A stretch of 64,000 nt of DNA from Candidatus Levyibacteriota bacterium. GTDB lineage: Bacteria > Patescibacteriota > Microgenomatia > Levybacterales > UBA12049. Location of the stretch: contig JACOXU010000001.1 of NCBI GenBank assembly GCA_016182185.1, positions 15,700-79,699 of the forward strand, read 5' to 3'. Position 1 is the first letter of the stretch, and each line of letters opens with the position of its first letter. The notes beneath the pieces are model-generated. The model made no database searches. It was not told the origin of the DNA and saw only the letters and a program-made list of their open reading frames with translations. The translations under genes were made by a program, and so were the position numbers. Shown piece by piece: positions 3,588-46,206 of the stretch.

Positions 3588-5921
3588 ATGGTAGATTACA
3601 GGAACAGCAGGCTATCAAGACGTCGCCTCAGACATAGTTCCTCAAAAATAATTCTCTACAGCAAACTTGCCAAATATGCCTTCTTCGGACTAATAGGATT
3701 TTTAATACTAATGACCGGACTTTTTCTTTGGTATGGACGTGATCTTCCAACGCCCGGAAAATTAATTGAGCCGGATTTATCACAATCTACCAGAATTTAT
3801 GATCGAAACGGTATACTCCTCTACTCTGTTTATCAAACTCAAAACAGAACCTATATTAAACTGTCTGAAATTCCAAAGATACTTCAGCAGGCAACTATTG
3901 CAATTGAAGATAAAAACTTTTATAAAAATCAGGGATTCTCAATTACCGGATATGCAAGAGCAATTAGAAATATCCTGCTTTTCAGGGGTCTTTCAGGAGG
4001 TTCTACGATTACACAGCAGTTGGTAAAGAATGTCTTATTAACTTCTGAGCGCACAATTCCCCGTAAGATAAAAGAGCTAATGCTCTCAATTCAGGTTGAC
4101 AAAAAATATACAAAGGATGAAATTCTGGAGATGTACTTAAATGATGTTCCTTATGGCGGTGCAAATATCGGAGTTGAGGCAGCTGCAGAATCATATTTCG
4201 GAAAAAAAGTTAAAGATTTAAATTTGGCAGAAAGCGCATTTCTGGCAGGTCTTCCTCAGGCGCCCAGTATATATTCTCCCTTTTCCGGAAAAAAATTTTA
4301 TGTCAAGCGAACAGAGGATGTACTTAAACAAATGGTCAACGAGGGAATGATAAGCAATAAACAAAAAGAACAGGCGCTTTCCGAGATAAAGTCAAAAACT
4401 TTTTCAGAAAAAGATACCGCAATAAAAGCTCCACACTTTGTCATGTATGTCAAACAGCTCTTAGCAGAAAAATTCGGTGAAAACTCTATTACCTCAGGTG
4501 GTCTTCAAGTCACAACGACACTCGACTATGAAATTCAAAAAAAGGCAGAGGAGATAATCAAGGACGAGATTAATAAGCTTAAGGGTTTCAATGTTGGAAA
4601 TGGAGCCGCAATCGTGTCAGATCCTAAGACGGGTGAAATTTTGGCAATGGTTGGAAGCAAAGACTATTTCGATACAGACAACGATGGTAATTTTAATGCA
4701 TCGTTATCAAACCGTCAGCCCGGGTCCTCTCTTAAGCCCATCATGTACGCGACAGCATTTGAAAAGGGATACACTGCGTCTACGCTTGTAATAGATGTGA
4801 AGACAGAGCTTCCTTCAAATGATCCAAAGAATCCTATCTATACACCGGTAAATTATGATGGAAAGTATAGAGGTCCCATTCAACTCCGTTTTGCGCTTGG
4901 AAATTCAGTAAATGTGCCTGCGGTCAAAATGCTTGCAAGAGTTGGAATAAAGGACGTTATGCAGCAGGCTTACAATATGGGGATAGAAAACTGGCAGCCA
5001 ACCAAGGAAAACCTGGCTAAAGTCGGGTTCTCGCTTGTCTTAGGAGGTCGGGAGACATCACTTCTTTCAGAAATTACGGCATATGGAGTTTTTGCAACAG
5101 CAGGAATAAGGCAAGATCCTGTCGCCATTTTAAAAGTCGTAGATAGTAAAAATAGTAAATTATTTGAGCATAAGAAAACTGATGGTCAGAAAGTCTTGTC
5201 TTCTGAGGCATCTTTTCTTATCTCTCATATCTTGCTTGACAATAATTCAAGAAGCATGGAATTTGGGACCAATTCGTGGCTTGTTATACCAGGCAGGACA
5301 GTTTCTGTAAAAACTGGTACAACTGATGATAAGAGAGATAACTGGACAATTGGATATACGCCGTCATATGTGGTTGGAGTTTGGGTGGGAAATAATGATA
5401 ATAGTCCAATGAACAAAGCAATTGCCTCAGGGGTCACGGGAGCATCCCCAATTTGGAACAGGATTATGAGGGAGGTTCTAAAAGGAAAAAGCGATGAAGC
5501 ATTTAACAAGCCGGATAATGTAGTTGCTATACAAGTAGATTCGTTCGGAGGAGGATTACCTGTAGGCGGTCAACCAACTCGTTCAGAATATTTTATAAAG
5601 GGAACTGAGCCTACGGGCCCTGGTCAGATTTATCAGAAGCTAAAACTTTCTAAACACCAATCTGGTAAACTCGCCAGTGAGTGGGAGATAAGTCACGGAG
5701 AGTACGATACAAAAGATTACATCGTATTTAAAGAAGAAGATCCTGCTTCAGCAGATGGAAAGAATCGTTGGCAGGAGGGAATTGATGCCTGGCTCAGGGA
5801 AAAATATTCTGCAGCTGATTGGCAATACTATCCGCCCAGAGAAACATCAGACTACAAGGGATCAGATGAATCAAACGAACCAACCCCCACATCTACTTTG
5901 ACTATTTCCCCAACACCCTAG
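3588..5921 (+). CDS. class A penicillin-binding protein (bifunctional transglycosylase/transpeptidase, PBP1A-like)
   Basis: N-terminal TM helix, the GT51 motif IAIEDKNFYKNQG, and transpeptidase motifs SSLKP (SxxK), SVN (SxN) and KTGTT. The C-terminal tail is low-complexity and Pro/Thr-rich. Confidence 0.9.
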   Translation: MVDYRNSRLSRRRLRHSSSKIILYSKLAKYAFFGLIGFLILMTGLFLWYGRDLPTPGKLIEPDLSQSTRIYDRNGILLYSVYQTQNRTYIKLSEIPKILQQATIAIEDKNFYKNQGFSITGYARAIRNILLFRGLSGGSTITQQLVKNVLLTSERTIPRKIKELMLSIQVDKKYTKDEILEMYLNDVPYGGANIGVEAAAESYFGKKVKDLNLAESAFLAGLPQAPSIYSPFSGKKFYVKRTEDVLKQMVNEGMISNKQKEQALSEIKSKTFSEKDTAIKAPHFVMYVKQLLAEKFGENSITSGGLQVTTTLDYEIQKKAEEIIKDEINKLKGFNVGNGAAIVSDPKTGEILAMVGSKDYFDTDNDGNFNASLSNRQPGSSLKPIMYATAFEKGYTASTLVIDVKTELPSNDPKNPIYTPVNYDGKYRGPIQLRFALGNSVNVPAVKMLARVGIKDVMQQAYNMGIENWQPTKENLAKVGFSLVLGGRETSLLSEITAYGVFATAGIRQDPVAILKVVDSKNSKLFEHKKTDGQKVLSSEASFLISHILLDNNSRSMEFGTNSWLVIPGRTVSVKTGTTDDKRDNWTIGYTPSYVVGVWVGNNDNSPMNKAIASGVTGASPIWNRIMREVLKGKSDEAFNKPDNVVAIQVDSFGGGLPVGGQPTRSEYFIKGTEPTGPGQIYQKLKLSKHQSGKLASEWEISHGEYDTKDYIVFKEEDPASADGKNRWQEGIDAWLREKYSAADWQYYPPRETSDYKGSDESNEPTPTSTLTISPTP

Positions 5922-7804
5922 ACAACTTTTGCCTTGAATTTTTGTTGTACCGCCTCAATAATTTTTTCTCTTATCTTTCCTACCTCTTCATTGGTTAAAT
6001 TTCTTTCTCTGTGTTGATAGATAATATGAAAAGTTCTGTTATTTTTAAACATATCTTTTAATTCTACGCTTTCTATAATTGTACTTTGTTTTTTTATTTC
6101 ATTGATAATTTCGCCGGTTTTTGCAATTCCGGAAATTTCAATGGTGATGTCTTCAACAACAGGGGGATACTTAGGAATAGGTTTGTATACTCTTTCAAGT
6201 TTAGTCTTTTCTAAGATATCTGAAAAATTCAATTCAAATATTACACCATCGCGGGTGACGTCAATGAATCTACTTGGATCTTCATCAATATTTAATTCTT
6301 CAAAAATTCTTTCAAGGAGCCCCTTTATTTCGTAGAAGTTTTTTTCGTTTGAAATTCCTGAAAGCATATATAATTCATTGGCTTCATCAAGAGTCGGACC
6401 AAGATAAACCTTGCCCATTTCAAACAGATTTATCTTTTCAAAATTAGGTTTATTTTGAACAAAAGCTTTTAATAAGTTTATTTTAAGAGTCGGTCTTAGA
6501 TACTCAAACTCCCGACTTACAGGATTATCGACTCTTAATACCTTATCAGAGTTTATGTTAAGATTTACCAAATCCTTTTCACTTATGAGGCTATAGGAGT
6601 AAATCTCAGAAAATCCGTCTGCCTTTAATAAATTTTTTACTTTCTCATCAATCAAATAATTCTTAAAATATAGAATTGTTTTGGTAGGTATTTCTCCTTC
6701 GGGAATAGTTTTGGGGAAATTATTGTATCCATATAATCTTGCGACTTCTTCAATAAGATCTTCTTCAATCTTAAGATCGTTTCTGTAAGTAGGAATTACA
6801 ACTTTGATCAGATCTTTTCCAGTGTCTTTTGGAGAAAGATTTAATTTCTTCAAAATATTCAAAACTATTTCTTTTTTGATTGTGATTCCAAGAATCTTAT
6901 TTAGCCTCTCGTAGCTTAAGTTTACTACCCAGGGGGCAAAGTCCTCCTTTTTGATGTCAAAAATACTGCTTGAAATCTCCCCGCCTGCTATCTCAAGTAT
7001 TAAATCAAGGCATCTTTCGAGTGCTTCAGGAGTTCCCCCTGCATTTACTCCTCTTTCAAAAATACTTGATGCCTCAGAACGAAGCCCCAGTGATTGTGAA
7101 GCCCTTCTTATAAGAACTGGGACCTCCACGGGTACTCTTATGAAGATTGTTTTTGTATTTTCAAAAGTTCCACTGTTGAATCCCCCTTTTATACCGCAAA
7201 GATCAATAATATTTTCGCGATCTGAGATTATAACCGCTCCTTTGGGTAAATAATAGGAAAGACCATCAACGCTTTTGAATTTTTCTCCGCCTTTTGCTTG
7301 ATGGACCTTCATTACTTTTCCATTAATCCTTTCATAGTCAAATGCATGAATCGGATTACCGAGCTCAAACATCACATAATTTGTTATGTCAACGATATTA
7401 TTGATCGGACGTTGACCGATTTTTATTAATTTTTCGGAAAGCCATTTGGGAGAATCTTTAACTTTTATTCCATCAACTATGATTCCTGTGAATCTTGGAT
7501 TTATAGTACTTTCTGTTTGTATATTAAGAGGTAAAGATTTTTTGGGCTTTATATTCTTTATATCAATTCTGGTTTCAGGATATTTAATCTGTCTTGCTTC
7601 AATTGCCGCAATTTCCCGGGCAATTCCAATAATTGAGAGAAGATCGGGTCGGTTTGGGGTTATCTCAAATTCAAAAAATATATCATTATCAATTTTGGTT
7701 ATTTTTTCAGTTCCTAGGCCTACCTCGGTAAGTTTCTCACCAAGTTTCTCAGGTGAGAGCGTGATATCAACGTATTCTTTAAGCCATGATAAAGGTGCTA
7801 CCAT
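5918..7804 (-). CDS. pheT: phenylalanyl-tRNA synthetase beta subunit, short form lacking the N-terminal tRNA-binding domain
   Basis: B3/B4 and B5 domain-like sequence plus a C-terminal FDX-ACB-like region. It lies immediately downstream of pheS. At 628 aa it is shorter than the ~800 aa typical bacterial PheT. Confidence 0.85.
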   Translation of the reverse strand: MVAPLSWLKEYVDITLSPEKLGEKLTEVGLGTEKITKIDNDIFFEFEITPNRPDLLSIIGIAREIAAIEARQIKYPETRIDIKNIKPKKSLPLNIQTESTINPRFTGIIVDGIKVKDSPKWLSEKLIKIGQRPINNIVDITNYVMFELGNPIHAFDYERINGKVMKVHQAKGGEKFKSVDGLSYYLPKGAVIISDRENIIDLCGIKGGFNSGTFENTKTIFIRVPVEVPVLIRRASQSLGLRSEASSIFERGVNAGGTPEALERCLDLILEIAGGEISSSIFDIKKEDFAPWVVNLSYERLNKILGITIKKEIVLNILKKLNLSPKDTGKDLIKVVIPTYRNDLKIEEDLIEEVARLYGYNNFPKTIPEGEIPTKTILYFKNYLIDEKVKNLLKADGFSEIYSYSLISEKDLVNLNINSDKVLRVDNPVSREFEYLRPTLKINLLKAFVQNKPNFEKINLFEMGKVYLGPTLDEANELYMLSGISNEKNFYEIKGLLERIFEELNIDEDPSRFIDVTRDGVIFELNFSDILEKTKLERVYKPIPKYPPVVEDITIEISGIAKTGEIINEIKKQSTIIESVELKDMFKNNRTFHIIYQHRERNLTNEEVGKIREKIIEAVQQKFKAKVV

Positions 7805-13854: not shown

Positions 13855-13864
13855 AATTTAAGTG

Positions 13865-13946
13865 TGCGGATGAGAGGACTCGGACCTCCAAGGGTTGCCC
13901 CACATGGCTCTAAACCATGCGCGTCTACCAATTCCGCCACATCCGC
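13865..13946 (-). tRNA. tRNA-Leu (anticodon TAG)
   Basis: Reverse complement GCGGATGTGGCGGAATTGGTAGACGCGCATGGTTTAGAGCCATG...; long variable arm; anticodon loop TTTAGAG. Confidence 0.85.
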
Positions 13947-15260: not shown

Positions 15261-15321
15261 GAATACTAATCATGGTTACATATTTGAGTAAAGATGTCAA
15301 GCTTTTAAGCCTGAAGTTTTG

Positions 15322-15393
15322 AGCGGGAGACGGGTATCGCACCCGCGACCTTCTCGTTGGCAACGAGACGTTCTACTGCTGAACTACTCCCGC
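15322..15393 (-). tRNA. tRNA-Gly (anticodon GCC), non-canonical D/T loops
   Basis: Reverse complement GCGGGAGTAGTTCAGCAGTAGAACGTCTCGTTGCCAACGAGAAGGTCGCGGGTGCGATACCCGTCTCCCGCT. The D-loop AGCAGTA has no GG. The T-loop TGCGATA reads UGC where TΨC is expected. Confidence 0.8.
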
Positions 15394-15687: not shown

Positions 15688-15724
15688 TTTTTGGATTATG
15701 ATTATATCAAAATCCTTAAGAATG

Positions 15725-43315: not shown

Positions 43316-43388
43316 GCGCCAGTAGCTCAACGGACAGAGCAACTCCCTTCTAAGGAGTAGGTTGTAGGTTCGATTCCTATCTGGCGCG
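43316..43388 (+). tRNA. tRNA-Arg (anticodon TCT)
   Basis: GCGCCAGTAGCTCAACGGACAGAGCAACTCCCTTCTAAGGAGTAGGTTGTAGGTTCGATTCCTATCTGGCGCG. Confidence 0.9.
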
Positions 43389-43473
43389 CAACGTACGAAA
43401 TCGAAGATTTCTACGTTGCTGGAACGTTTAAATTTATAATTTAATACGTTCCGCCTTCTTAAATTATTCATTA

Positions 43474-43725
43474 ATGCACTACGTTTATGTGCTAAAAAGC
43501 TTAAAAGACAATAGTTTATATATTGGATATACTACTGATCTTAAGAGAAGAGTTTTTGAACATAATAATGGTTTATCACTCTCAACTAAATATAAAAGAC
43601 CGTATAAATTAATTTTTTACGAGGGGTTTCTGGTCAGAATAGATGCGAAACATAGAGAAATTTATTTGAAAAGTGGATGGGGGTTAAGAACCTTGAAAAA
43701 ACTGCTTAAGAGGACGTTGGTATAA
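43474..43725 (+). CDS. GIY-YIG nuclease-superfamily mini-protein (YhbQ/UPF0213-like)
   Basis: YVYVLKSLKDNSLYIGYTTDLKRRVFEHNNG matches the GIY-YIG motifs. 83 aa. Confidence 0.75.
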   Translation: MHYVYVLKSLKDNSLYIGYTTDLKRRVFEHNNGLSLSTKYKRPYKLIFYEGFLVRIDAKHREIYLKSGWGLRTLKKLLKRTLV

Positions 43726-43732
43726 TAGAATT

Positions 43733-44398
43733 ATGTTTCCACTTTCAGATTCTATAAAAGCCCGAAGGCTCCCTTTTATAAATCTAATACTGATTGCAGT
43801 AAATGTATATGTATTTTTTCAACAGATTACTTCAGTATCTCAAGATATATTGATTTCTAAGTATGCATTCATCCCGTCTCTTATAAATTTTTCAGATTTT
43901 TCAACTCTTACGCCTTTTGTAACAGCAATATTTTTACATGGCGGAATATTGCACATTGTTTCCAATATGTGGTTTCTTTGGGTATTTGGAGATAATGTTG
44001 AGGGATATACGGGATGGTTTTTTTATCCTCTCATCTTTCTTTTCTCAGGAATTGTGGGTAATTTACTTCAATATTTATTTATGACTGGTTCTTCTATCCC
44101 GATGCTTGGCGCATCAGGAGCAGTAGCAGGGGTTTTGGGAGCATATTTTGTACTTTTTCCTAAGGCTCAGATAAGAACACTTATTCCAATCTTCGGTTTC
44201 CCTTCAGTTATAAATATTTCTTCCGCTTTTATGCTTGGTTATTGGTTCCTGCTTCAGATTATTTCAGGCGCTACATCAATAGGTATGTCTCAGGATGTGG
44301 GAGGAGTCGCCTTTTGGGCCCATGTGGGGGGATTTGTGACGGGACTAGTATTTGGTAAACTTTTACAAAAAAAGGTGGAATTTGAGCTTGAATCTTGA
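43733..44398 (+). CDS. rhomboid-family intramembrane serine protease
   Basis: GASGAVAGVLGAYF (GxSG catalytic Ser) and AHVGGFVTGL (catalytic His); about 6 TM helices. Confidence 0.8.
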   Translation: MFPLSDSIKARRLPFINLILIAVNVYVFFQQITSVSQDILISKYAFIPSLINFSDFSTLTPFVTAIFLHGGILHIVSNMWFLWVFGDNVEGYTGWFFYPLIFLFSGIVGNLLQYLFMTGSSIPMLGASGAVAGVLGAYFVLFPKAQIRTLIPIFGFPSVINISSAFMLGYWFLLQIISGATSIGMSQDVGGVAFWAHVGGFVTGLVFGKLLQKKVEFELES

Positions 44399-44479: not shown

Positions 44480-44552
44480 GGTGGATGTAGCTCAACAGTA
44501 GAGCGCCAGGTTGTGGACCTGGAGGTCGCGGGGGCAGCACCCGTCTTCCACC
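44480..44552 (+). tRNA. tRNA-His-like (anticodon GTG) with degenerate D/T loops
   Basis: G(-1) GTGGATG TA GCTC-AACAGTA-GAGC G CCAGG-TTGTGGA-CCTGG AGGTC GCGGG-GGCAGCA-CCCGT CTTCCAC C. Canonical His anticodon arm, G-1 and C73 are present. The D-loop lacks GG, the T-loop lacks TΨC, and acceptor pair 6:67 is U-U. Confidence 0.45.
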
Positions 44553-44633
44553 CCCGAGTCAAACTCGGTTCCCCCGAGATTGGCGAGGAGTCGCGTTTGA
44601 CGCGACTACCTTAAATTGTATTAATATAAAAAT

Positions 44634-44921
44634 ATGAATGAAACGTTAGACGTTTCAGTTCGATACTACGTTTATATTCTCTACTCTCTTAAAGATAATA
44701 AGTTTTATATTGGCTTCACGAACAACCTCAAAAAACGATTGAGTGAGCATGGTGGTGGAAATGTTGAAGCAACAAAAAATCGGTTGCCGGTAAAACTTAT
44801 TCATTACGAGTATTTTATTAATCGAGCAGATGCTGAAGCTCGAGAAAGATTTTTAAAAAGTGGTTATGGTAGAAAGCAATTTAAGGAAATTCTAAAAAAT
44901 ACCCTCAAGCCTCTGATATAA
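44634..44921 (+). CDS. GIY-YIG nuclease-superfamily mini-protein (YhbQ-like), paralog
   Basis: YYVYILYSLKDNKFYIGFTNNLKKRLSEHGGG; about 50% identical to 43474-43725. Confidence 0.75.
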   Translation: MNETLDVSVRYYVYILYSLKDNKFYIGFTNNLKKRLSEHGGGNVEATKNRLPVKLIHYEYFINRADAEARERFLKSGYGRKQFKEILKNTLKPLI

Positions 44922-44928
44922 TTGTCAT

Positions 44929-45645
44929 ATGTCGGAAGCTGAGCAATCATTGTATATAATTCGTAAAACGGATCGTAAAGAACTACTCTATGCAGAACAT
45001 GAGAAATTCAGAAAAGTTGACGCTATTGAAGTAAAACGCTCTTTTGTTATTGCTCAATATATTCGTAAACACAATGTAGGTAACAAAAGATATCTTTCAG
45101 AATTAACTCATGAGCAATTTCAAGAACGTTTAAAGCGAGCAAAATCATTTGTTTCTCATCTTTCCGAGCCAAAACTAGATGAAGTTATTGCTGAAGAATA
45201 CAAAAAAAGGCTTAAGGCATACAATGCTGTAGATTGGTATACAGGAAAAGTTCATGCAAATGAAGTTGGTGTATGGAAGGGTGCAGGTGGGCTTCCTGTA
45301 CCTTGGACACAGGGTTCATTAGTTGATACTGCGGTTCAGGTTCTGGTGGCCATGCAAGAAGATAGTGATAGTGTACTTGTTGCACGAGCAAAAAGAGCAA
45401 TTCCTCGCATCAGACGCAATATGGATATAATTGAAAAAGACCCTTACCTTTACCCAATTATTTTACCTGGTGGTACGCAGGGAAGAGGTTTGAAAGGACG
45501 TCCCTATAAAGGTTTTTTGCTTATGAAAGGTGATATTGATGATGGTTGTATGAGAGCTATAGCTTTTGTTAGTAGTGGGAGAAACAGTTTTCCTGCTTAT
45601 ATTGGAATACAAAGGCGAACAGGGAGTGAAGATTTGGTAAAATAA
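44929..45645 (+). CDS. hypothetical protein (238 aa)
   Basis: Long ORF; no recognised motif. Confidence 0.45.
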   Translation: MSEAEQSLYIIRKTDRKELLYAEHEKFRKVDAIEVKRSFVIAQYIRKHNVGNKRYLSELTHEQFQERLKRAKSFVSHLSEPKLDEVIAEEYKKRLKAYNAVDWYTGKVHANEVGVWKGAGGLPVPWTQGSLVDTAVQVLVAMQEDSDSVLVARAKRAIPRIRRNMDIIEKDPYLYPIILPGGTQGRGLKGRPYKGFLLMKGDIDDGCMRAIAFVSSGRNSFPAYIGIQRRTGSEDLVK

Positions 45646-45666: not shown

Positions 45667-46206
45667 ATGAATATGTCGGCAATCCGTTTTGAAGCAAAAC
45701 TATTTAAAATCGGCTCTTGGACTATTCTCAGACTTCCTAAGAACGCAAGCACCATGCTTCCATCACGCGCCTTAACAATGATTAAGGGAACCATCAATGG
45801 TTTTGTCTTTCGAGTCGCGCTCGAACCGGATGGTCGTGGAAGTCATTGGTTTAGAGTTGATGAAGAAATGTTAAAAGAAGCTCATGTGCAAGCTGATGAC
45901 AGCGTATCTTTTGAAGTTGAGCCGACCAAAGAATGGGTAGAGCCTGATGTGCCTGAGGATTTTAAAAAAGCTCTTACAGGCAGCCCAAAAGCACATACCC
46001 TATGGATGGATATCACACCAAACGCGCGCTGGGATTGGATCCGCTGGATACGAGCTGTCAAGACTCCCCAAACACGCCAAAAGCATATTGAAGTTGCCCT
46101 CTCAAAGCTTAACAAAGGTATAAGAAGACCCTGTTGTTTTAACCGCAATCTATGCTCTGAGCCATATGTATCAAAAAACTGGGTGCTCCTTACGCCAATG
46201 CAATAG
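45667..46206 (+). CDS. DUF1905 / YdeI-OmpD-associated family protein
   Basis: N-terminal FEAKL...ILRLP...LPSR...GTINGF.F...L.PDG.G.HW (DUF1905); C-terminal DFKKAL...P.A...W...P..RWDWIRWI..VKTP.TRQKHI (YdeI-like). Confidence 0.65.
   Translation: MNMSAIRFEAKLFKIGSWTILRLPKNASTMLPSRALTMIKGTINGFVFRVALEPDGRGSHWFRVDEEMLKEAHVQADDSVSFEVEPTKEWVEPDVPEDFKKALTGSPKAHTLWMDITPNARWDWIRWIRAVKTPQTRQKHIEVALSKLNKGIRRPCCFNRNLCSEPYVSKNWVLLTPMQ

Follow-up and report, generated by a model that had tools for sequence, protein, structure and literature searches.

The window studied here, a stretch of 64,000 nucleotides (64 kb) from contig JACOXU010000001.1 of Candidatus Levyibacteriota bacterium (positions 15,700 to 79,699 of the forward strand), is ordinary chromosome of about 36% G+C with genes for RecG, TyrRS, PheT, PBP1A and a zwf-gnd fusion. 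At 44480-44552 it carries a gene for tRNA-His(GUG) in which the D-loop and T-loop depart from the usual tRNA pattern, followed by hairpins and a short direct repeat. A model that had seen the letters alone (hereafter the original prediction) called this gene degenerate and offered three readings of it: a divergent functional tRNA-His, a pseudo-tRNA, or a tRNA-like regulatory or integration element. The gene consists of the following parts, given in window coordinates.

44480-44552, + strand: tRNA-His(GUG) gene from G-1 to the discriminator C73, supported by the RF00005 score, a minimum free energy (MFE) cloverleaf and covarying stems
44480, + strand: G-1, with C73 (44552) as its partner
44481-44487, + strand: 5' strand of the acceptor stem, GTGGATG
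44494-44500, + strand: D-loop AACAGTA on the D-stem GCTC/GAGC, read as A14 A15 C16 A18 (44497) G19 (44498) U20 A21
44506-44522, + strand: anticodon arm CCAGG-TTGTGGA-CCTGG, with the loop at 44511-44517 and the anticodon GTG at 44513-44515
between the anticodon arm and the T-arm, + strand: variable loop AGGTC, 5 nucleotides (nt)
44528-44544, + strand: T-arm GCGGG-GGCAGCA-CCCGT
44533-44539, + strand: T-loop GGCAGCA, read as G54 G55 C56 A57 G58 C59 A60, where the canonical loop has T54 Psi55 (pseudouridine) C56 R57 A58
44545-44551, + strand: 3' strand of the acceptor stem, CTTCCAC
44486 and 44546, + strand: U6 opposite U67, a U-U mismatch in the acceptor stem

The G-1, the His anticodon arm, the C73, the D-loop without GG and the U-U at 6:67 that the original prediction listed are all borne out by the sequence. 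G-1 is the main identity element for bacterial HisRS. C74 (44553) is conserved as well, and CCA is not encoded in the gene. The covariance-model score that had been proposed as a check is clear: Rfam model RF00005 matches 44481-44552 with 50.0 bits, above the gathering score of 29 (E = 1e-7 for the whole window), the second lowest score among the 15 tRNAs of the window, and the MFE fold of the sequence is a cloverleaf. The canonical signature of an elongator tRNA elbow is absent, positions 18, 54, 55 and 58 being A, G, G and G. G18, T54, Psi55 and A58 are regarded as near-universal in cytoplasmic elongator tRNAs. The original prediction was right that the D-loop lacks GG and that the T-loop lacks the T54, Psi55 and A58 signature, but the loss is narrower than this wording implies. 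In the Rfam alignment the AG of the D-loop occupies positions 18-19, and thus G19 is kept and G18 alone is replaced (by A); in the T-loop, C56 and the purine at 57 are retained. Since both G19 and C56 are kept, the outer G19-C56 pair of the elbow is intact.

Two pattern scans recovered relatives of the gene. The genome scan covered one genome per species, with the D-arm and the His anticodon loop fixed and the T-arm left free, and yielded 20 loci in Levybacteria/Levyibacteriota and other Patescibacteria. Eighteen of these hold the same gene, with the T-loop GGCAGCA, GGCGGCA or AGCATCA; the remaining two are a Paceibacterota locus with an AG D-loop and a canonical T-loop (L014) and a locus in which the gene is truncated (L012). 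The metagenome scan fixed the T-arm as GGTCGCGGG-NGC-NNNA-CCCGTC, left the D-arm free and gave at least 120 loci. About half of the metagenome matches listed are chance hits in high-G+C coding DNA, whereas the low-G+C matches listed are tRNA-His (at least about 40), tRNA-Gly with anticodon GCC or CCC (at least about 20) and a few tRNAs for Asp, Pro, Thr and Met, every one of them with AG in the D-loop in place of GG. Among the matches listed, the odd tRNA-His is represented by 38 distinct sequences from 56 sources in Levybacteria, other Microgenomates-like genomes and metagenomes. These copies are not contaminants of one sequence, as they differ in their flanks and anticodon stems. The sequence read amounted to 64 kb of the host genome and at most 14 kb per relative.

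Nine of the 20 records from the genome scan are titled 'uncultured Gammaproteobacteria'. Contigs with Gammaproteobacteria titles (L002, L005, L006, L007, L009, L010, L011, L015) have 37-43% G+C and a Levybacteria-type tRNA-His, and their rhomboid, DUF1905 or SGNH neighbours, where present, are 56-73% identical to those of the window. The titles of these records, and of CAYWEP-type records in general, look wrong, and the contigs belong with the Levybacteria contigs in one group.

The 38 distinct sequences were aligned and scored on a cloverleaf that included the G-1:C73 pair. Standard pairs occupy 96.5% of the stem cells, and nine pairs have changed on both sides: all five of the anticodon stem, 11:24 in the D-stem, and 4:69, 5:68 and 6:67. 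Covariation on this fold scores 0.302, compared with 0.02-0.09 when the partners are slid by one to three columns, and none of 500 shuffles reached 0.302. The pair G-1:C73 is G-C in 38/38 sequences, the anticodon is GTG in 38/38, the anticodon-loop residues T33 G34 T35 G36 G37 do not vary, and A18 and G19 are likewise invariant. The T-stem is invariant too, a feature imposed by the search pattern for the metagenome matches and free to vary in the genome matches. Variants of the T-loop among the relatives (GGCGGCA, GGCAGAA, GGCGGAA, AGCATCA, AGCGTCA) hold only G/G or A/U at 54/58. RF00005 scores of the relatives range from 45 to 57 bits. The pair 6:67 is unpaired in 24 of the 38 sequences and standard in the other 14 (e.g. 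U-A in L020), which makes the U-U mismatch a fixed trait of a subgroup. Eight of the 38 carry GTGGTTG with CTTCCAC and so have adjacent U-U mismatches at 5:68 and 6:67.

The unusual elbow residues are coupled to one another across tRNAs of several kinds. ARAGORN, run on the window and on 79 low-G+C loci (483 kb), found 200 tRNAs; a further 45 odd tRNA-His genes, missed by ARAGORN, came from the pattern search, and the combined set comprised 209 distinct sequences. In this set T-loops with G55-C56 go with an AG D-loop, without GG, in 57 cases, and two further Phe tRNAs with G55 have the D-loop AGGTAGTA, with AG likewise at positions 18-19. T-loops with U55-C56 go with a GG D-loop in 139 cases and with AG in one, the Paceibacterota locus mentioned above. 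The combinations at 54/58 are T/A (169), G/G (34) and A/T (6), with no others. Kinship among the sequences inflates statistics of this co-occurrence. Restricted to tRNAs that lie outside both search patterns, the counts are 7 with AG and G55, 139 with GG and U55, and none with AG and U55 (Fisher p = 3e-11), those seven belonging to six isoacceptor types (His, Gly, Ala, Phe, Cys, Asn); one apparent case of GG with G55 outside the patterns is a mis-parsed Phe D-loop. Counted over all the material, the isoacceptor types that combine A18 with G55 number at least ten: His, Gly, Ala, Phe, Cys, Asn, Asp, Met, Pro and Thr. Such co-occurrence across many isoacceptor families argues for a physical coupling of the two residues. 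The label 'degenerate' does not fit these observations, as the deviant positions are conserved and form two covarying pairs, A18/G55 and 54/58.

One more tRNA of the window has the same elbow.

15321-15393, - strand: tRNA-Gly(GCC) with the A18/G55 elbow, D-loop AGCAGTA and T-arm GCGGG-TGCGATA-CCCGT

Its T-stem is identical to that of the tRNA-His, and its type recurs in at least about 20 metagenome loci among the matches listed, two of them with anticodon CCC. In the window, tRNA-Leu(TAG) (13864-13946, - strand) has the T-loop TCCGAGT, with C55 for U55, and a normal GG D-loop; C55 is also found in six more tRNAs of related loci (Arg, Leu, Gly, Gln, Val, Phe). The other 12 tRNAs of the window have a GG D-loop and a TTC T-loop. 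Two T-loops of the combined set read TTGGA, with G56, and both co-occur with C at position 19, that is, with a swapped 19-56 pair; both belong to tRNA-Leu(TAA) (L056, 3511-3595; L075, 8343-8429), and the swap is an apparent one.

Three metagenome contigs of 55-64% G+C (L069, L054 and L039) have dense tRNA arrays, with 17-22 genes within 2-9 kb in L054 and L069 and 9 genes in L039, and these arrays include Pro or Asp tRNAs with a G55 T-loop and an AG D-loop. The presence of such tRNAs in higher-G+C contigs indicates that the alternative elbow is not confined to Patescibacteria. Three other metagenome matches of higher G+C (L031, L060 and L113), which end in GGCTCCACCA, resembled 3' ends of transfer-messenger RNA, but ARAGORN and Rfam report no gene of any kind at these places. 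In viral contigs the odd T-arm gave two matches only, both by chance in high-G+C coding DNA.

The odd gene is probably the only tRNA-His gene of its genome, to judge from the available sequence. The 15 tRNAs of the window have 15 different anticodons, and neither ARAGORN nor Rfam finds a second tRNA-His within the 64 kb. No source holds an intact odd gene and a canonical tRNA-His together (483 kb in all). The odd tRNA-His is 76-77% identical to canonical tRNA-His of related bacteria and 69% identical to the tRNA-Gly(GCC). An origin from tRNA-Gly(GCC) by a change of anticodon, considered on account of the shared T-stem and the similar D-arm, was set aside on these values. A canonical tRNA-Arg(TCT) precedes the tRNA-His on the same strand in 31 of the 56 sources, at a distance of 2-111 nt in 14, and from this adjacency the ancestral state is taken to be a tandem tRNA pair. 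In one relative (L003) a tRNA-Leu(TAA) follows directly after the tRNA-His.

The truncated copy in the Levybacteria contig L012 (about 5700-6340, - strand) is informative. There the odd tRNA-His is cut after position 41 and followed by an open reading frame (ORF) of about 170 amino acids with cysteine pairs and an HNH_3 domain (E = 5.9e-10), the end of which overlaps a complete canonical tRNA-His with a GG D-loop, the T-loop TTCAAGT and a score of 67.9 bits. The contig lacks a 3' half of the odd gene. This arrangement suggests an endonuclease-associated replacement of a resident tRNA gene, and that the odd and canonical kinds are interchangeable. We also considered a phage origin of the HNH gene and the canonical tRNA-His: of 41 HNH relatives in phage contigs, none adjoins a tRNA-His.

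Taken together, these data make it very likely that a Levybacteria-like member of the Microgenomates/Patescibacteria has at 44480-44552 a genuine tRNA-His gene, typical of its clade, in which the non-canonical elbow is compensated. Among the three readings of the original prediction, the divergent functional tRNA-His is thus strongly supported by the 56 sources, the compensatory changes in the stems and the invariant His identity elements. Transcription would proceed on the + strand, either together with the upstream genes for tRNA-Arg(TCT), GIY-YIG and rhomboid proteins or from its own promoter. RNase P cleavage would leave the encoded G-1 in place, the 3' trailer would be trimmed and CCA added (C74 alone is conserved in the gene), HisRS would charge the product by way of G-1:C73 and the anticodon, and the mature tRNA-His would decode CAU and CAC.

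The gene is followed by a structured spacer, the features of which are these.

44553-44633, + strand: structured spacer of 81 nt between the tRNA-His and a GIY-YIG gene, ending in an A+T-rich stretch
44554-44568, + strand: hairpin CCGAG-TCAAA-CTCGG
44558-44584, + strand: alternative hairpin CTCGG-TTCCC-CCGAG, extended by GTCAA/TTGGC
44589-44607, + strand: hairpin (A)GTCGCG-TTTGA-CGCGAC(T), within a hairpin at 44585-44612
44551-44558 and 44571-44578, + strand: two copies of the direct repeat CCCCCGAG, 8 nt, the first of which overlaps C72-C75 of the tRNA

Both hairpins and the twice-occurring repeat had been noticed in the original prediction and are present as described. The spacer folds with an MFE of -29.5 kcal/mol (z = -5.07 against shuffles), and in the predicted fold CTCGG pairs with the second CCGAG copy, not the first. 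Because CTCGG has two CCGAG partners, the direct repeat offers two mutually exclusive hairpins. Comparable hairpins follow the tRNA-His only in three close relatives, namely L006, L011 and the especially close L136, and the other trailers, about 50, are unrelated; the hairpins were therefore rejected as a conserved trailer element of tRNA-His. Three loci (L016, L038 and L086) share a different trailer, CAYTCGAYTCRC...TGYTCGCTYRTGGC, in the first ~45 nt after the tRNA-His. A dispersed family of hairpins with TCAAA or TTTGA loops was considered and dropped, with two G+C-rich examples in 64 kb and no loop enriched, and a match of the spacer to the Rfam family 'drum' (20 bits against a gathering score of 43) is a chance hit. 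Scans for sigma-70 promoters and intrinsic terminators returned no more sites than in shuffled sequence. A 21-nt stretch of the spacer, GATTGGCGAGGAGTCGCGTTT (44578-44598), is 81% identical to a stretch near the 3' end of the rhomboid gene (44294-44314), which may be chance. The hairpins and the 8-nt repeat are neither part of the tRNA nor a conserved element linked to it; they belong to the spacer before a GIY-YIG gene that looks inserted in this lineage.

The neighbouring genes are as follows.

43316-43389, + strand: canonical tRNA-Arg(TCT), the conserved upstream partner, found by ARAGORN and Rfam
43474-43725, + strand: GIY-YIG paralog of 83 amino acids, starting 84 nt after tRNA-Arg(TCT) (PF01541, E = 5e-14)
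43733-44398, + strand: gene for a rhomboid-family membrane protease (PF01694), the upstream neighbour of the tRNA-His
44634-44921, + strand: GIY-YIG gene of 95 amino acids, starting 81 nt after the tRNA-His (PF01541, E = 3.5e-15)
44929-45645, + strand: ORF of 238 amino acids, without a Pfam match and without relatives in the loci retrieved
45667-46206, + strand: DUF1905/OmdA gene

The tRNA-His does lie between two GIY-YIG paralogs, as the original prediction had it, and their proteins are 52-55% identical, but the rhomboid gene also stands between the first paralog and the tRNA. This first paralog begins 84 nt after its tRNA, behind two hairpins that are unrelated to those of the tRNA-His spacer. 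The second (44634-44921) is 86% identical to the gene in the same place in L136. The rhomboid gene adjoins the odd tRNA-His in 13 loci, with 48-73% identity. In about 12 relatives the DUF1905/OmdA gene comes directly after the tRNA-His, so that the GIY-YIG gene at 44634-44921 and the ORF at 44929-45645 look inserted in the present lineage; the ORF is probably part of this lineage-specific insertion. Small GIY-YIG genes (83-95 amino acids) adjoin tRNAs twice in the window and also in L041, L071, L086, L010, L028, L038, L045, L056, L132 and L136. L041, L071 and L086 have a GIY-YIG gene in the interval between tRNA-Arg(TCT) and tRNA-His, a pair that is adjacent in 14 other sources. This recurrence next to tRNAs suggests a mobile or tRNA-targeted insertion.

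Three other explanations of the gene have to be weighed. It could be a specialised extra tRNA-His that acts outside translation, as a non-ribosomal histidine donor or in another non-decoding role, with a canonical copy serving the ribosome. There is a parallel in the non-proteinogenic tRNA-Gly of staphylococci, which lacks G18, G19, U55 and C56 (PMC4574755), the odd elbow removes the modification sites at T54, Psi55 and A58, and the canonical gene of L012 demonstrates that a canonical tRNA-His can occur in the clade. Only 64 kb of the host were read, and a canonical copy could lie elsewhere, which also counts against our own reading. We nevertheless regard a specialised copy as unlikely. G19-C56 is retained, in contrast to the U18U19 or C18U19 of the staphylococcal tRNAs, no source has both kinds in the 483 kb read, and the canonical gene of L012 sits exactly where the odd one is broken, which points to replacement and not coexistence. 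The same elbow recurs in at least ten isoacceptor types, and the odd tRNA-His stands in tandem with ordinary tRNAs. Genomes of the Microgenomates group are about 1 Mb in size with roughly one tRNA gene per anticodon, a pattern that the 15 different anticodons of the window follow. Ordinary proteinogenic tRNA-Gly(GCC) of other bacteria has the same T-stem, GCGGG/CCCGU, and with a T-stem of this type nothing suggests weakened binding of EF-Tu.

Decay would account for four deviating near-universal positions (18, 54, 55 and 58), a U-U mismatch in the acceptor stem and the lack of an ARAGORN call. The original prediction listed a pseudo-tRNA among its readings; it would be a former tRNA-His that gathers mutations in the loops and the acceptor stem. 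This we find scarcely credible, because the deviations are fixed traits of 38 distinct sequences (56 sources) and covary across unrelated isoacceptors, while the stems change by compensation only and the identity elements do not change. The unconserved, stem-breaking decay of a pseudogene is not seen, only 6:67, and 5:68 in some sequences, being unpaired; the one copy that is really broken, in L012, is different in kind, namely truncated. The remaining option of the original prediction, a tRNA-like attachment site or regulatory element in which the tRNA 3' end, the repeat and the hairpins border or regulate a GIY-YIG element, draws on an apparent insertion, as the GIY-YIG gene (44634-44921) and the ORF at 44929-45645 split the tRNA from the DUF1905/OmdA gene. 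Both GIY-YIG genes of the window begin 81-84 nt past a tRNA, each behind two hairpins, and such genes adjoin tRNAs in many relatives. An element of this kind accounts for the spacer and not for the tRNA, which is conserved independently of it, and as an explanation of the tRNA we hold it to be very unlikely. The tRNA 3' end (18 nt, at most 3 mismatches) has a single match in the window, there is no meaningful long repeat in the window and no integrase adjacent to the tRNA-His, the copies of the direct repeat start 20 nt apart with nothing enclosed between them, the two GIY-YIG spacers have unrelated hairpin sequences, and similar hairpins follow the same tRNA in three relatives only.

Several further observations weigh against a working tRNA-His with a compensated elbow. 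ARAGORN reports 14 tRNAs in the window and misses the tRNA-His. The acceptor stem has U6-U67 and, in some relatives, U5-U68 as well, and A15 stands opposite C48, which by sequence is no standard Levitt pair. The search patterns account for some of the conservation, since matches of the genome scan had to share the D-arm and those of the metagenome scan the T-stem. L012 lost the odd gene where a canonical one was supplied, so the odd elbow itself is dispensable. We found no citable precedent for a G54-G58 pair, and the A18-G55 contact is argued by analogy. As for the spacer, its hairpins lack a U-tract, the relatives that bear them are too similar for a covariation test, and a role of these hairpins as a transcript-end, processing or insulating structure, which we mention with low confidence, is a guess.

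How could such an elbow be built? In the canonical elbow, residues 19 and 56 form a pair, residue 18 is intercalated at the 57/58 step and bonded to Psi55, which has been called 'universally conserved', and U54-A58 closes the T-loop (PMC4810234). In the tRNA-His, G18/Psi55 is replaced by A18/G55, and T54-A58 by G54-G58 or, in some relatives, by A54-U58. Read in this way, the elbow is remodelled and not lost, with an alternative and internally consistent set of putative tertiary contacts. Double T-loop modules in the L1 stalk, RNase P and T-box stem I have the loops AGNNA/UGNNA, in which an adenine inserted between the fourth and fifth residues pairs with G at position 2 (PMC3664808). At the level of sequence the xGNRx T-loop motif is present here, residues 54-58 being GGCAG or AGCAU in tRNA-His and UGCGA in tRNA-Gly, with A18 available; the UGCGA of tRNA-Gly(GCC) is an exact match to UGNNA. 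We therefore propose, by analogy, that the A18-G55 contact would follow the T-loop logic of rRNA and RNase P, with A18 intercalated and the A-G pair in trans Watson-Crick/sugar-edge geometry. G54-G58 and A54-U58 may act as the closing pairs, a suggestion drawn from their strict co-occurrence. The L-shape and the outer face formed by G19-C56 would most likely be preserved. In tRNAs generally, this outer pair provides a flat face for the ribosome, RNase P, RNase Z and the CCA-adding enzyme.

With T54, Psi55 and A58 replaced, the tRNA-His cannot carry T54, Psi55 or m1A58. This exemption could possibly be linked to a reduced modification machinery in small genomes. Neither an A18/G55 elbow nor odd T-loops in Patescibacteria turned up in the literature searched, which included few subscription journals, and the A18/G55 elbow is probably new. 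The evidence seems to us evenly balanced on a broader proposal that joins these points: that A18-G55, with G54-G58 or A54-U58 in tRNA-His, forms an undescribed and fully functional elbow, which arose repeatedly in essential elongator tRNAs of Microgenomates/Patescibacteria (ten types) and sporadically elsewhere, imports the A-G contact of rRNA and RNase P, and exempts its bearers from T54, Psi55 and m1A58 modification.

As a gene the tRNA-His is ordinary; as a tRNA structure it is a variant elbow. Here an apparently essential tRNA has had four near-universal positions replaced across a clade of very small bacteria from groundwater and yet bears every sign of function. The coupling rule (A18 with G55, and 54 with 58) offers a natural test set for the requirements of the elbow, for the tolerance of RNase P, RNase Z, the CCA-adding enzyme, EF-Tu and the ribosome towards a changed inner elbow with G19-C56 kept, and for the question of which tRNAs need TruB, TrmA and TrmI. 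It also bears on annotation. Across the 57 sources that hold a complete tRNA-His, ARAGORN makes 12 tRNA-His calls, two of them canonical, and it fails on the GGCAGCA/GGCGGCA type of T-loop. Annotation based on ARAGORN would thus report tRNA-His as missing in these genomes, and this false absence distorts the tRNA counts that serve as quality criteria for metagenome-assembled genomes.

Compared with a canonical bacterial tRNA-His, the odd gene has the same cloverleaf, a 7-bp acceptor stem with G-1:C73, GUG in a U33...R37 loop and a 5-nt variable loop, and it keeps G19-C56, G53-C61, U8, A14 and A21; it differs in A18, G54, G55 and G58, in U6-U67 and in A15 opposite C48. The non-proteinogenic tRNA-Gly of Staphylococcus aureus and S. 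epidermidis, the glycine donors for peptidoglycan bridges, resemble it in lacking G18 and U55 (PMC4574755). Unlike it, they have U18U19 or C18U19 and no C56, so that G19-C56 is lost, and they coexist with proteinogenic isoacceptors and bind EF-Tu weakly, whereas nothing here indicates a second tRNA-His and the odd elbow spans many isoacceptor types. The AGNNA/UGNNA modules share the five-residue T-loop with G at position 2, and the present elbow has A18 at the intercalating position; however, those modules lie within large RNAs and are closed by U-A or A-A, whereas here the setting is a tRNA elbow, the adenine comes from the D-loop, and the closing pair of tRNA-His is G-G or A-U. Finally, some alpha-proteobacterial tRNA-His, which lack G-1 and have A73, also represent a lineage-specific departure from a near-universal feature (PMC5370408). 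In that case the identity elements for the synthetase have changed, whereas in the tRNA-His described here the identity elements are intact and it is the tertiary core that has changed.

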